Below are positions 21,679 to 55,695 of a stretch of 64,000 bases of DNA, one piece after another (positions within the stretch are counted from its first letter, which is position 1; each line of letters opens with the position of its first letter). The DNA comes from Octopus vulgaris (taxonomy: Eukaryota). A model generated the notes under the pieces. That model was not told the origin of the DNA. It searched no databases and was given only the letters and a program-made list of their open reading frames with translations. Location: assembly GCA_951406725.2 (NCBI GenBank), contig OX597826.1, positions 2,232,001-2,296,000 on the forward strand. The letters are read 5' to 3'. The position numbers and the translations under genes are program-made.

Positions 21679-21948
21679 ACAAAAGCCGTTCGATTCACTT
21701 CAAAATTTAAGTATAATTTGTCAAAATATTTTCGTCGCTTTAAGACCGCGACCTGTTCACTGAGAGCACGGATTTTTGTCGCAGTGAAATGAATAGAAGA
21801 GGAAAAAGAATTAAATTTAAATGTTGAAGTGAATCGAACGGCTTTTGTGTGTTTCTTAAATGGCTTACAAACACCTTCCACGCTGCAGTTGTTTTCGTTT
21901 CAGCACACGATCTTAGATCAAATCACTTGCTATGCAAGTACATCTCCC
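21679..21948. mobile_element. TA-flanked fold-back element (Penelope-like terminal repeat remnant)
   Basis: Inverted arms acaaaagccgttcgattcacttcaa (21679) and ttgaagtgaatcgaacggcttttgt (21824-21848); (TA)n on both sides. Confidence 0.7.
21719..21765 (-). ncRNA. Minimal type I hammerhead ribozyme fold, G3-C8 swapped core
   Basis: TCTCA-GTGAACA-G-GTCGC-ggtcttaaa-GCGAC-GAAA-ATAT-TT-TGACA: stem I 4/5 pairs, stem II 5 bp, palindromic stem III. Confidence 0.6.
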
Positions 21949-22349
21949 TATATATATATATATATATATATATATATATATATATATATATATATATATA
22001 TATATATATATATATATATATATAACAACACAAATGAATCGAGGTTCGCCAGCGCTATTTCAGACGCGTTCTTTTTGTTTTGAAGCCATTTGTGTTCTTA
22101 GTTATTTTACATGATTGCTGGACCTTACAGTGGACCGGGAAGATGCATTCCGGAGTACGTCTTAATCTGAATGTACATATATATATATATATATATATAT
22201 ATATATATATATATATATATATATATATATACGACTACTTATATGCTTGAGTAGATTTATCTGTTCATGTCCATGTATATGTGAGTGGTAAAAAATGATA
22301 TATGCGCGAGTGACGATATATATCTATACATATATATATATATATATAT

Positions 22350-22852
22350 AAATTCAAAATGAATATAATTTGCAGAATTGCATACAATAACGTCCGTACA
22401 AAGTCAGCCTTGTAAATTAAATTAATATCTAATTTGAAATTTGAATTAATTCGTTCTCTACCCGGCAAAGGCCACAGCAGTAAATTATTTTCTGCAGCAT
22501 CATTTTTTCCGGAAAAGTTTAACGCGACAAAACGAGGACATTTTAATAGTAACCACGAGTCTAATGAGTAGAACTGTTTACAAGTCTGACTTTATGCGGA
22601 CGTCAAAGTATGCAGTCCTACAAATTATATTCATTTGGACGGTCACACCGAAGATCTACGGACTTCTTACGTAAGTAAAATTACGTAATATAGTGATAGT
22701 GAAACATGTATGTGAATAATCCATATCTTTATTGCTTTTCGTTTGTCTTGCTGGATTACGTTTTGGGAGATTTGCTAAATTTTTCTTGAGACAATAGCGG
22801 ATCTATTTCTAGCATAAGGGTGTCCACATGGTGGTTTCCCTTTAATATGTTT
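22350..22852 (+). mobile_element. TA-flanked hammerhead-bearing element with 5' inverted arm; homologous to 54080-54500
   Basis: The ~65-bp arm at 22352-22416 is the reverse complement of 22577-22638. Shared segments ttttctgcag, gcggacg, caaattatatt, tttgtcttgct and tttgctaaattt occur in the same order as in the 54 kb copy. Confidence 0.75.
22643..22715 (+). ncRNA. Type I hammerhead fold with a U4C change in the core (probably inactive)
   Basis: TCACA-CCGAAGA-tcta...tagt-GAAA-CATG-TA-TGTGA: perfect 5-bp stem I, palindromic ACATGT stem III, GUA cleavage triplet. Confidence 0.65.
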
Positions 22853-22924
22853 ATTATATATATATATATATATATATATATATATATATATATATATATA
22901 TATATATATATATATATATATATA

Positions 22925-23220
22925 TAATAGAAATATTAAAATTACTAAGTCTCTATAAAAGAGATTGCGGCAGCGTTTACTGGAAATTGTTATCGCCATA
23001 TTAATATGGCATTCTTATAGATATAAGAATAATCACTGCATTTTTTTCTCTCCTTTTTTCTGTCCTTGTTTTTTTCTGTGTATCTTTCTGTCGAAGAGCG
23101 TAGGCTCGAAATATAAAAGACTTGTTCTATTTCTATTCTTGAGCGCCATACTAATACATTTGTTTGTTTGTACTCCACCTGCCTTCGTCTTTTGTTTATT
23201 TTTGTAAACCTTCCCGTTAT
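22925..23220 (+). mobile_element. TA-inserted repeat family D (minimal hammerhead-like motif at ~23083-23120)
   Basis: Homologous to the reverse complement of 39791-39997, 53492-53703 and 26041-26135; motif tcttt-CTGTCGA-a-GAGCgtagGCTC-GAAA-ta-TA-aaaga. Confidence 0.8.
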
Positions 23221-23351
23221 ATACATATATATATATATATATATATATATATATATATATTTATAATAGGATTAGCTCGTATACGAGTAGGTATATATTT
23301 GTAAAAAATGAAGTTCGAAAATGCTGCTATATTATACAATTTTTAATTTTT

Positions 23352-23413
23352 ATATATACATTATAACATGTTTCAGTTCCTGAAATGAACCTTATCAAAA
23401 AAAGTTATATATA
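23352..23413 (-). ncRNA. Decayed hammerhead fold, U3-A8 core
   Basis: TTGATAA-GGTTC-atttcag-GAACT-GAAA-CATG-TT; stem I only partly paired. Confidence 0.45.
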
Positions 23414-24143
23414 AAAAAAGACAGCTCATGCCGTCAAACACAAGAAATTCATTTATAATACACAACGGAGTCAGACATCTTAGAGTTCATGTATAGTTGA
23501 TATATAGTTTGAAGTAAGTTCATTCATGCTATATGTTCAAAGTGTTCGATGCAGTGGCCCACGGTGGCGATACGTATTCAATACAAAAAACAGATCAAAG
23601 TGGTGGAAAGCAGTCAATACAGAAGATTGATGTTTCCGAAAGAGCGAGGAATTCATTTTTACCTTAAGCAATTGTGATGACCCATGGTGGGTGTTCGCTG
23701 GGTGGTTCTAGTGAGTCTTGTGAATTGCTCGGTTTTATAATGCCTGTTAGGTGGTCAGTCCAGCGTAGCATGACGTCATCAACGTTTTGACCAATCGTTT
23801 CGTTAGGTGGCTTTAGTCAAGCAGAACGGGACGTCATCATCATTTTGACCAATCGCTGCATTATAACTGTCTCTTGTCTGTTTCCTGTTTTGACCAGTCG
23901 CTTCGTTTGTCAAGCAGAACGGGACGTTTTCAGAGGCACAAGTAAAGTTAGATTTGATCTTGAATCTCTGTTTTGACGCAAATATATATATTTTGACGCA
24001 AATATATATATTTTTTAACATTTAAGCCTTCTGTCGTTTTTTCACTCTTTACTATTTTCTTATATATTCACCCACGTGCTTTACCAAACAAACTTTCTTA
24101 TCTATCTATCTATATATATATATATATATATATATATATATAT

Positions 24144-24443
24144 CACCCTGATCACCGTGACCGACCAGGCTATCAGATGTTGCTACACATCGCTGGTCAC
24201 AATGCGCTTTGCATTGTTTTAGCTTTCAAAAGACGCCATCCCGCTGGCTAAGCGAGCAGGCCAACAGAAGAAATAGTGAGATAAAGTTGTGGGGAAAGAG
24301 TACAGCAGGGATCGCTACCACCCCCTGTCGGAGCCACGTGGAGCTTTAGGTGTTTTCGCTCAATAAACACTCACAAGGCTTGGTATGGGAATCGAAATCG
24401 CGACCCCCCGACCACGAGTCCGCTGCCCTAACAACTGGGCCAT
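24144..24443 (-). mobile_element. tRNA-derived SINE, family E
   Basis: The minus strand begins tggcccagttgttagggcagcggact (A box) ... gatttcgattccc (B box) and ends in tandem cacggtgat/cagggtgat followed by (TA)n. Confidence 0.85.
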
Positions 24444-53703: not shown

Positions 53704-53871
53704 CACATACACATATATATATATATACACACAAATATAAACATATGTATATATATGCATATGCATATGAATACCTCTATATGTATGCATACATATATAC
53801 ATATATATATATACAAGAGCGTGTCTATCTATACTCATATCAATATACATAGTCACTCACAGGCAAACACA

Positions 53872-54610
53872 TACGCTTGCGTTCTGGTGTTTGCTAAATT
53901 TTCTTGTGAACATAGGGGGTCTACTTCTAGCATAATGGATGTCCACTTAGTGGTCATCCCTCTTATATGTATGTAATATAATTTTTCTGAATATTCAGTT
54001 TTTTTAATATGCTAGACCACTGGTTTTAAATTGATAGCAATCAAATTAATATTCAATTTTTCAACCTTATTATTTTAAATTTCAATTTAAATAACTATGT
54101 TCTCTAACCGGCTAAATTCACTGCAGAGAATCATTTTCTGCAGAATTATTTCCGGTATATTGGTGCGCCAAAATGAAGACTTTTGAAATATAATCCCAAA
54201 TGTAATTGGTGGAACTGTATACATGTTCAATTTCATGCGGACGACCCGTGTATAGTTCTGCAAATTATATTTTGCTATGACGATCACACTGACGAGCTGC
54301 GGGCAATTACTATGTGGTAACAACGAAACCGGCTTTGTGCTTAAACTTTATATTATATACCTTTTCATTTGTCTTGCTCGCTTACGTTCTGGCGTTTGCT
54401 AAATTTTCTTGAGACAATCCTTTCTTAGTGGTAAGACCACAGGGGTCTACATCTTGCATAATGGATGTCCACTTAATGGTCATCCCTCTTATATGTATAA
54501 AATATAATTTTTCTGAATCTTCAGATTTTTCAATATGCTAGACTACTAGTTTTAAATTGATATTAATCAGATTAATATTCAATTTTTCACCTTTATTATA
54601 TTATATTTAA
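53872..54610 (+). mobile_element. Hammerhead-bearing element with a ~210-230-bp direct repeat (partial tandem)
   Basis: 53872-54080 repeats at 54379-54605 (cgttctgg.gtttgctaaattttcttg...ataatggatgtccactta.tggtcatccctcttatatgtat...aatattcaatttttca). A related fragment lies on the minus strand at ~41400-41480. Confidence 0.8.
54285..54339 (+). ncRNA. Type I hammerhead fold with intact CUGACGA/GAAA but a damaged cleavage triplet
   Basis: CACA-CTGACGA-GCTG...CAAC-GAAA-CCGG-ctt-TGTG; same position in the element as the 22643 motif. Confidence 0.6.
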
Positions 54611-54635
54611 AATTATATATATAAAGCGATGGTTT

Positions 54636-55162
54636 GTTGCCAAGTTAATGTAGCAGTAGTAAGAAAGGGAAGAATGCTACTGCTATTTAGCCCCAAGAAA
54701 CAACGTTTGTAGTTAGTTACATGACACAAGCGTTTTCTGTCCTTAAGTTTTCAAGCAGGGCAGGTAAGAACATCCACCCAACAAACCCAGCATGCAGAGA
54801 CTAGTTTTAGTGGAGTAGCTAGGCTCTGCCTGCTGTCGGTGCTAAATCGTTCTTGAAAACTTACAAAATTTCAAGTGAAATAAATTCACTCATTTACAAA
54901 ATTAGAAATATTGCATTTCTCAATCACTCAGGGAGAGTTATGCAGCCAGCAAAGCCATGCTGCTCAAGACTCATGTAGGACAACTAACCTGAAGCAAATT
55001 TCTGGGTGCTGGCTTTGTTGGGTGGAGCTACTTATCATCTCTGTTTGAAAACTTCATGACGTAGAACGCATGTGTGACGTAGGCAACTGGTAACGGTATT
55101 TCTTGGAGCTAAATAGCAGTTGCACACTTCCATTTCCTGGGACTGCCACATTGAGTCGGCAA
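54636..55162. mobile_element. TA-flanked element with ~65-bp diverged terminal inverted repeats
   Basis: ttgccaagttaatgtagcagt...tgctactgctatttagccccaagaaa versus tttcttggagctaaatagcagttgca...actgccacattgagtcggcaa. A related motif lies at 21207-21232. Confidence 0.65.
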
Positions 55163-55225
55163 TATATATATATATATATATATATATGAAAGAAGGTTTG
55201 AAAATGCAATTTAAAAGATGTTTAT

Positions 55226-55270
55226 TTACTTTACCGGTTTCACTCTTTGGAAAAAGATTGTCAAAAGTAA
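55226..55270 (-). ncRNA. Minimal hammerhead fold, U3-A8 core (left arm)
   Basis: TTACTT-TTGACAA-TCTTT-ttcc-AAAGA-gt-GAAA-CCGG-TA-AAGTAA: 6-bp stem I, 5-bp stem II, palindromic ACCGGT. Confidence 0.6.
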
Positions 55271-55650
55271 CATGTGGAAGTTTGGTTGCGTTAATTAATG
55301 GTTGTTGCAAATTGCTACAATATTTCAATGAGCTTGTTAAACTTTTTTTATATTCTCAACATACTGTTGTCACCAAAGACTGTATATTTATATGGATTAT
55401 AGTACTCTGTGTCAACTAATATTCTGTGCATGTTTGAATATACAGATACAATATCAATATCAATTCCTTCTGAAAACTATCTTAAGTATGTCCTTGAGAA
55501 CGATTATTTATGTAATCTTTTGTGCCCAATATTTTAAGAAACTTGTTGAACTTTTTTATGTCCTGAACATGTCCCTGTTACCAAAGACTGTATATATGTA
55601 ATGTAACAATTTGCAACAACCAATAATTAACGCAACTAAACTTCTACATG

Positions 55651-55695
55651 TTACTTTTGACAATCTTTTTCCAAAGAGTGAAACAGGTAAAGTAA
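55651..55695 (+). ncRNA. Minimal hammerhead fold, U3-A8 core (right arm)
   Basis: Same as the left arm except that stem III reads ACAGGT. Confidence 0.55.

Follow-up and report, generated by a model that had tools for sequence, protein, structure and literature searches.

Truncated Penelope-like retrotransposon ends with predicted variant hammerhead motifs beside (TA)n tracts in the Octopus vulgaris genome

Introduction

Minimal type I hammerheads that work as dimers have been described in the pseudo-long terminal repeats (pseudo-LTRs) of metazoan Penelope-like elements, with many families per genome (Cervera and de la Pena 2014, PMC4209133), and the same paper counts about 1,300 matches in Schistosoma for a core variant with U3-A8. 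The elements themselves are recognised by a bias towards (TA)n, inverted copies and one-sided tails (PMC8557442). The hammerhead of an anole Penelope-like element cut only together with protein and was partially rescued by C3G/G8C, and the tail was traced to two internal starts of reverse transcription (PMC11167929). Here we analyse hammerhead-bearing repeats in a stretch of 64,000 nucleotides from Octopus vulgaris (contig OX597826.1, positions 2,232,001 to 2,296,000, forward strand; below, the window), together with the genome-wide families to which they belong.

An initial annotation of the window had listed motifs with several different cores in or beside (TA)n tracts. All of them were located at the places given and with the cores given, its coordinates being the low ends of the motifs, and we label the families accordingly A (41087), B and its relative B2 (22643 and 54285), C (55226 and 55651), D, E (23352) and F (21719). 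Like the minimal hammerheads of PMC4209133, the motifs have a type I layout with a short palindromic stem III and a bulge after A9 and occur mostly as single truncated copies; they differ in stem III palindromes that reach 6-8 nt and in a stem II that can be very long. The octopus element Hydra-1_Obim likewise has a hammerhead, of canonical type, near its 3' end and inserts into (TA)n (PMC8557442, Files S1 and S2), but it belongs to a different clade and all cores in that table are C3-G8 with A6. Type I hammerheads in high-copy animal repeats are also shared with non-LTR retrozymes (PMC7229834); these are short head-to-tail arrays devoid of open reading frames (ORFs), whereas the window copies are truncated or inverted and four of the six families are tied to ORFs.

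Results

Every motif in the window seeds a repeat family across the host genome (2.8 Gb, 227 contigs). First-look searches returned 498-2,104 candidates per family, of which 40 were scored and 30 loci retrieved; these loci, numbered with the prefix L, are the best-scoring copies. Families C, D, E and F are the ends of Penelope-like elements, each lying downstream of GIY-YIG endonuclease ORFs at a distance of 0.5-2.4 kb. A complete element of 4,707 bp was found for family E (L211), in which a hammerhead motif, a 479-aa ORF1, an ORF with reverse transcriptase (RT) and GIY-YIG domains and a second hammerhead motif follow one another. Another E locus (L214) has an intact 781-aa frame matching RVT_1 (E=1e-6) and GIY-YIG (E=3e-6). 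The E motif is present in 26 of 30 endonuclease loci, about two dozen of 150 scored copies have the full 781-aa frame open, and E has copies that are 99-100% identical. ORF1 of this element (L211:2633-4069, + strand) overlaps the RT ORF by about 80 nt in another frame; it gave only a sub-threshold Pfam match and an uninformative atlas match at 0.77, and is without a convincing family. Assembled contigs from four runs presumed to be RNA, which by their nature cannot display RNA ends, gave neither usable ends nor a GT-AG junction when aligned to the full E element, and no conclusion is based on them.

For family C, one locus (L362) comprises an inverted short copy, a 475-aa RT-endonuclease frame with RVT_1 above the cut-off, a 2.3-kb untranslated region (UTR) rich in simple repeats, the motif, a tail and (TA)n, and a shorter version with a 226-aa frame (L361) has the same inverted 5' copy and tail. 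Pseudo-LTR and inverted 5'-truncated copies are seen in L361-L363, and L211 of family E bears its motif at both ends. Both orientations occur together in 11 of 30 C loci, and 22 among 41 C ends have the optional tail, which measures 30-40 nt and is confined to one end; tails also occur in E and F. An endonuclease ORF beside a C copy in L005/L221 was considered as the C parent and rejected, C having inserted into the (TA)n of that element. Family F has a GIY-YIG ORF (E=3e-5) about 0.9-1.0 kb upstream in all three places where the locus reached that far, and the F-type RT frame (376 aa) carries YVDD. For family D, L160 has an RT thumb and an endonuclease at about 790 nt upstream of the motif, the intervening UTR being common to L165 and L273. 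The search for RT and GIY-YIG ORFs proposed in the initial annotation thus succeeded for these four families; A and B/B2 are taken up below.

Compared with described clades, families C and E, and probably D, are like Neptune in their RT, CX2-5CxxC linker, C-terminal GIY-YIG, (TA)n bias, inverted 5'-truncated copies and 30-40-nt tail (PMC8557442), and unlike it in the extra 479-aa ORF of E and in simple-repeat-rich 3' UTRs of 0.8-2.4 kb, the clade being assigned by motif comparison. Family F and a likely sister of it (L221/L005, L077, L086, L102, L118, L165, L189) are like Nematis in their short CxxC-to-GIY spacer and similar C-terminus, as judged by eye against Figure S2 of PMC8557442; in their cores, G3-C8 in F and U3-A8 in the sister, they are unlike Nematis elements. 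Our endonuclease tree comprises seven sequences without reference elements, and the clades come from comparison by eye with published alignments. The endonuclease regions of C and E are 51% identical, and those of F and its closest relative found here 41%. We also observed a U3-A8 motif with a 2-bp stem II (by eye) 3' of another Neptune-like endonuclease ORF (L278), to which a 3' end at about 23970-24110 of the window is related.

The family majorities restore the minimal type I layout. They read CUGAUGA with a 7-bp stem II on an A·G pair and palindrome ACAGCUGU in A; CCGAWGA with U·U followed by 3 bp and a long hairpin, and ACAUGU in B; CUGAYGA with G10.1-C11.1 in B2; UUGACAA with U·U, then 5 bp, ACCGGU and a 6-bp stem I in C; CUGUNGA with a bulged A, a 4-bp stem II and ACGU in D; UUGAUAA with a 5-bp stem II, ACAUGU and an irregular stem I in E; and GUGAACA with a bulged G, a 5-bp stem II, AAUAUU and a 7-bp stem I in F. 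All seven keep G5, A9, G12, A13, A14, A15.1-U16.1 and a non-G H17. Both A6 and U4 are found in A, B2, C, E and F, and B has C4 in 26 of 31 copies. The single shared layout described initially holds for the majorities without being fully uniform, with a non-canonical 10.1/11.1 pair in A, B and C, a bulge after A9 in D and F and a very weak stem I in E. When real copies are folded, A, B2, D and F have both stem I and stem II in their minimum-energy structure. One stem I pair covaries within B (A-U 22, G-C 5, G·U 2 and mismatch 2 in 31 copies). Exact genome matches number at least 5,888 for the F core 19-mer and at least 17,605 for the D pattern, with 0 for the control of each. The families had been called mutually dissimilar, which is correct at the DNA level apart from B and B2 (65% over 349 nt) and does not extend to the C and E proteins.

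In order to examine the pairing of positions 3 and 8, a hammerhead descriptor that left both positions free was run on 100 evenly spaced 10-kb stretches (1.0 Mb, contigs C1-C17), with four shuffles as control. With A6 required, it returned 28 matches against 2.0 in the shuffles, and 24 of these are Watson-Crick at 3-8 (C-G 16, U-A 5, G-C 2, A-U 1; the other four are A·G, C·A, U·G and U·U). The U·G match is a decayed copy of a C-G family. Without A6 the sample gave 12 matches against 6.5, of which 8 are C-G, 7 of those belonging to family D. We then clustered the 91 unique A6 matches from all loci, a set enriched for the query families. All 10 clusters with at least two distinct sequences are complementary (7 C-G, 2 U-A, 1 G-C), and the 26 singletons comprise 14 C-G, 2 U-A, 1 A-U and 9 others. 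A candidate A3-U8 family is not supported, its single matches (1 of 28 in the sample, 1 singleton in the clustering) being at chance level. In every named family the majority is Watson-Crick at 3-8, in line with the initial annotation; among single copies mismatches occur, 6 of 49 in F for example. Hammerhead motifs with stem II insertions of 70-110 nt, which short descriptors overlook, were also seen (L323, L327, L027, L331).

The placement of the families in or beside (TA)n, noted from the window, was confirmed in the sample and found to be one-sided. Of the 28 complementary sample matches with enough flank, 20 have a (TA)6+ tract no more than 200 nt downstream, against 13.8% of random positions; on the upstream side such a tract is present for 6 of 28 sample matches.

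Within the window itself, which is 35% GC and dense in microsatellites, the signal is much weaker. A strict hammerhead descriptor gave 0 matches, and a relaxed one gave 4 (F, D, one C and a match at 62960 that belongs to none of the named families); 25 block-wise dinucleotide shuffles averaged 1.0, and 2 of them reach 4. No hammerhead occurs among the 150 Rfam matches listed of 492, all of which are below the gathering score and driven by microsatellites, and the output of a repeat finder was likewise dominated by microsatellites. By descriptor, the window alone is not beyond chance, and the families and the genome sample are. The weak signal in the window is explained by decay of most of its copies: the palindrome is broken in the second C copy and in two copies of D, the stems of B2 are damaged and stem I of F is partly lost.

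The number of independent changes at 3-8 is smaller than six, because C and E are sisters, as their endonuclease regions indicate, with U3-A8 probably arising in one event. The named families thus represent three states and perhaps two to three changes rather than six independent trials. In the likely F sister, U3-A8 is found in all 8 copies, the bulged G and the UUU site are the same as in F, and stem II is homologous and covarying. Of all the comparisons made here, this contrast points most directly to what would be a compensated swap between U-A and G-C.

Family D behaves differently at position 6. A hand count of the first 100 matches listed gave U 42, A 23, C 23 and G 12 at position 7, U in 96 at position 6 and G in 96 at position 8. 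The variable position of D is thus one at which hammerheads are unconstrained, and its fixed one carries a change that is normally not tolerated; part of the U at position 7 may come from CpG decay. Five further loci (L303, L272, L292, L312, L336; 7 matches in the 1-Mb sample) hold kin of D that share its short stem II and ACGU palindrome and keep A6, which suggests from sequence comparison that U6 is derived.

To ask at which level the constraint acts, we compared divergence of inserted copies inside and outside the core, excluding CpG columns and columns with a majority below 75%, and replacing the 30-locus D set by a systematic one. The core differs at 40 of 1,480 positions (2.7%) and the flanks at 196 of 5,274 (3.7%; p=0.065), and selection on individual inserted copies is not supported. 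The 3-8 constraint acts between source elements and not on inserted copies.

The features of the window are collected in Table 1.

Table 1. Hammerhead-bearing insertions and motifs in the window. N3, position of core nucleotide 3.
Feature	Position	Strand	N3	Core	Predicted cut	Remarks
Family F insertion	21680..21948	.				Inverted pair of short pseudo-LTR ends, head to head, with (TA)n on both sides; only one arm has an extra tail (about 21891-21948)
Family F motif	21719..21764	-	21760	GUGAACA (G3-C8)	after U at 21724	Bulged G, 5-bp stem II, palindrome AAUAUU; stem I 3 bp here against 7 bp in the family
Family B insertion	22350..22854	+				Between (TA)n tracts; ORF link not found
Family B motif	22643..22715	+	22648	CCGAAGA (U4C)	after A at 22710	U·U at 10.1/11.1, long stem II, palindrome ACAUGU
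Family D pseudo-LTR end	23038..23217	+	23088	CUGUCGA (U6 for A6)	after A at 23115	Motif 23083-23120; (TA)n next
Family E 5'-truncated 3' UTR/pseudo-LTR with tail	23261..23927	-	23398	UUGAUAA (U3-A8), 23398-23392	after U at 23365	Last 0.65 kb of the element plus tail; 95-99% to ends of full element L211; weak stem I
Family D copy	26045..26134	-	26098	CUGUAGA		Stem III palindrome broken
Family D copy	39792..39997	-	39911	decayed
Family A inverted insertion	41043..41336	.				Between (TA)n tracts; ORF link not found
Family A motif	41140-41087	-	41133	CUGAUGA (canonical)	after A at 41094	A·G at stem II base, palindrome ACAGCUGU
Family D copy	53493..53703	-	53604	CUGUAGA		Palindrome broken
Family B2 (relative of B) rearranged insertion	53874..54611	.	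54289	CUGACGA		Motif 54285-54339 (+); canonical G10.1-C11.1; stems II and III damaged
Family C insertion	55188..55778	.				Long (+) arm with about 40-nt tail and inverted 5'-truncated (-) arm; (TA)n flanks
Family C motif	55226-55270	-	55264	UUGACAA (U3-A8)	after 55232	U·U at 10.1/11.1
Family C motif	55651-55695	+	55657	UUGACAA (U3-A8)		U·U at 10.1/11.1; palindrome broken

Several other repeats share the window. A further U3-A8 family forms head-to-tail units of about 362 nt within long self-complementary arms (L307:971-1340(-), L087, L302, L310), resembling non-LTR retrozymes, and a fragment of it, matched by eye, lies at about 22927-23037. Beside a family D copy, an uninterrupted 1,040-aa frame at 26571-29693 (+) encodes an AP-endonuclease and RT, as in ORF2 of long interspersed elements (RVT_1 E=6e-31). 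A near-perfect 144-nt palindrome at 35006-35149 abuts (TA)n like the head-to-head hammerhead pairs and is without a recognised core. Abundant interspersed repeats occur at 15026-15393, 48824-49193 and relatives, some as 184-nt tandem pairs, and two more repeat families have 10-11 copies each (for example 20948-21082 and 21440-21608); by their appearance we take all of these to be like short interspersed elements.

Discussion

The features analysed here are truncated Penelope-like retrotransposon ends, in which C, E and F display all tested characters of the class and D departs from it in A6 only. We propose, with a probability of roughly 0.65, that the window repeats are 3'-end fragments of several Penelope-like families beside (TA)n, each with a predicted minimal type I hammerhead. 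The A and B/B2 insertions have the same inverted, (TA)n-flanked build, and a Penelope-like origin of A and B is likely. Between the Penelope-like and retrozyme systems first envisaged, the former is borne out by C, D, E and F, and the tandem arrays of the latter are not seen for the window copies.

On the molecular level, the hammerheads would cut slowly, likely as a dimer joined by the palindromes of stem III and assisted by the protein that the element itself encodes. As in published Penelope-like elements, the endonuclease would nick AT-rich DNA, and reverse transcription would start at two internal sites, producing the optional tail, and would usually stop early, leaving stubs with nothing but the hammerhead end. 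The 3-8 pair would be kept in source elements, where it would change only by compensated swaps (C-G, U-A, G-C) because the core fold would matter during transposition, and the inserted copies would then decay neutrally. The selection on the ribozyme fold suspected from the window agrees with the constraint on 3-8 at the family level, and is weaker for E, C and B, whose stems are not of minimum energy, and for D, which breaks A6.

A number of observations weigh against our proposal. D A6U and B U4C both fall in the CUGA turn, in which low activity was measured for the mutants tested (PMC9901934), although no family is more abundant than D (19 copies in 1 Mb). The hammerhead stems of B, C and E, though drawable, are not in the minimum-energy fold (stem I probability 0.60, 0.26 and 0.01; stem II 0.09, 0.04 and 0.32, respectively), and the palindromes of D and F are weak as duplexes (-1.7 and -0.2 kcal/mol). 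As to the parent elements, no ORF link was found for A or B/B2 among the 30 best-scoring loci each, in which the shared upstream sequence extends to at most about 390 nt (A) and 680 nt (B); the D-ORF link over its whole span comes from one locus (L160), and that of the F sister from one place, interrupted by a C insertion. The RVT_1 score of E (28.8) is just below the cut-off of 29.6, and neither the 376-aa F-type RT frame nor a second F endonuclease copy has a Pfam match at E 0.05. In the anole system, moreover, hammerhead mutants are reported to insert unimpaired in vitro, and RNA ends at the site were not seen (PMC11167929).

Some of these points lead to another explanation, which we consider rather unlikely as a whole: that the motif, in some families at least (D and E), persists as a folded RNA signal that binds protein or sets the start of reverse transcription, with cutting negligible or dispensable and the 3-8 pair conserved for the fold rather than for catalysis. 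D, fixed for A6U, has nonetheless reached its very high copy number, and E is young, as judged from its near-identical copies and open 781-aa frames, with a stem I that barely forms. For the anole element, cleavage was dispensable for insertion in vitro (PMC11167929), and Naiads are described as spreading without canonical hammerheads (PMC8557442). In pairwise mutagenesis, CUGA-turn mutants all had low activity except the G:C swap (PMC9901934), a result that favours F and counts against D and B; it predicts that D's A6U would be nearly inactive. Against a purely structural signal stands the conservation of G12, A13, A14, A15.1-U16.1, G5, A9 and a non-G H17 in seven majorities, which such a signal need not require, and natural A6C and U4C variants are reported to retain low activity (PMC3088659).

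It is very improbable that the motifs belong to non-autonomous tandem retrozymes processed to small circular RNAs. A and B/B2 have no ORF link among their 30 best-scoring loci each, units of about 240 nt make up a short local D array at one locus (L175), another U3-A8 family occurs in 362-nt tandem units (L307, L087), and a 2026 preprint derives animal retrozymes from Penelope pseudo-LTRs (10.64898/2026.07.22.740005); but C, D, E and F lie downstream of their own endonuclease ORFs, and in the window the copies stand singly or as inverted pairs, with 5' truncation of varying extent and with tails, no head-to-tail arrays being seen among them. The covariation could also be artificial, had hammerhead-like strings simply been selected out of AT-rich repeats, as the window count (4 against 1.0, reached by 2 of 25 shuffles) and the non-independence of the six families might suggest; this reading is largely refuted by the sample (28 against 2.0, 24 complementary), by the complementarity of 10 of 10 multi-member clusters, by the position of the motifs at the expected place behind endonuclease ORFs and by the covariation of stems within B and between F and its sister.

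With the window repeats read as ends of Penelope-like elements, much of what they display is already known: the class of element and its insertion into (TA)n, and among the core features U3-A8, U4C and a U·U that closes stem II at its base. Natural U3-A8, U4C, U10.1·U11.1 and A6C were described by Perreault et al. 2011 (PMC3088659), where the change at position 6 is A6C, against A6U here, and the available part of which names no natural G3-C8. We also considered U·U at 10.1/11.1 as a novelty and rejected it, as it appears in PMC3088659, in PMC7229834 and in File S2 of PMC8557442, where it stands at the stem II base of many Hydra elements. The new variant spectrum expected from the window is thereby reduced to the G3-C8 and U6 families.

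Two families, F (G3-C8, at least 5,888 copies, with a likely U3-A8 sister) and D (at least 17,605 copies, U6 fixed), appear to be natural variants that have not been described. In the literature searched, no natural G3-C8 or A6U hammerhead is reported, G3-C8 being represented by laboratory mutants only. Many small hammerhead variants in Penelope-like elements were reportedly described by Lünse et al. 2017 (cited through the review PMC6765202), a work outside the search that could contain both. Tentatively, and at somewhat less than even odds, one genome would hold a natural series of cores, in which sister families have C-G, U-A and G-C at 3-8 and the most abundant family has A6U, the rest of the core being constrained. 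Descriptors with CUGANGA fixed overlook families whose copies number from thousands to tens of thousands.

What hammerheads do in endonuclease-bearing Penelope-like elements is an open question (PMC8557442, PMC11167929). If such a series exists, either U6 and G3-C8 cores would be active in a dimeric, protein-assisted setting, in which case the hammerhead consensus would be extended and standard searches would miss large families, or the fold would be selected without catalysis, which would answer what hammerheads do for the element. The octopus genome offers matched natural variants for this purpose: G3-C8 and U3-A8 in likely sisters, U6 and A6 in related stems, and young families with intact ORFs in which stem I is either strong or nearly absent. 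Whether cutting or only folding is selected would thereby become directly testable with short RNAs and the cognate protein.

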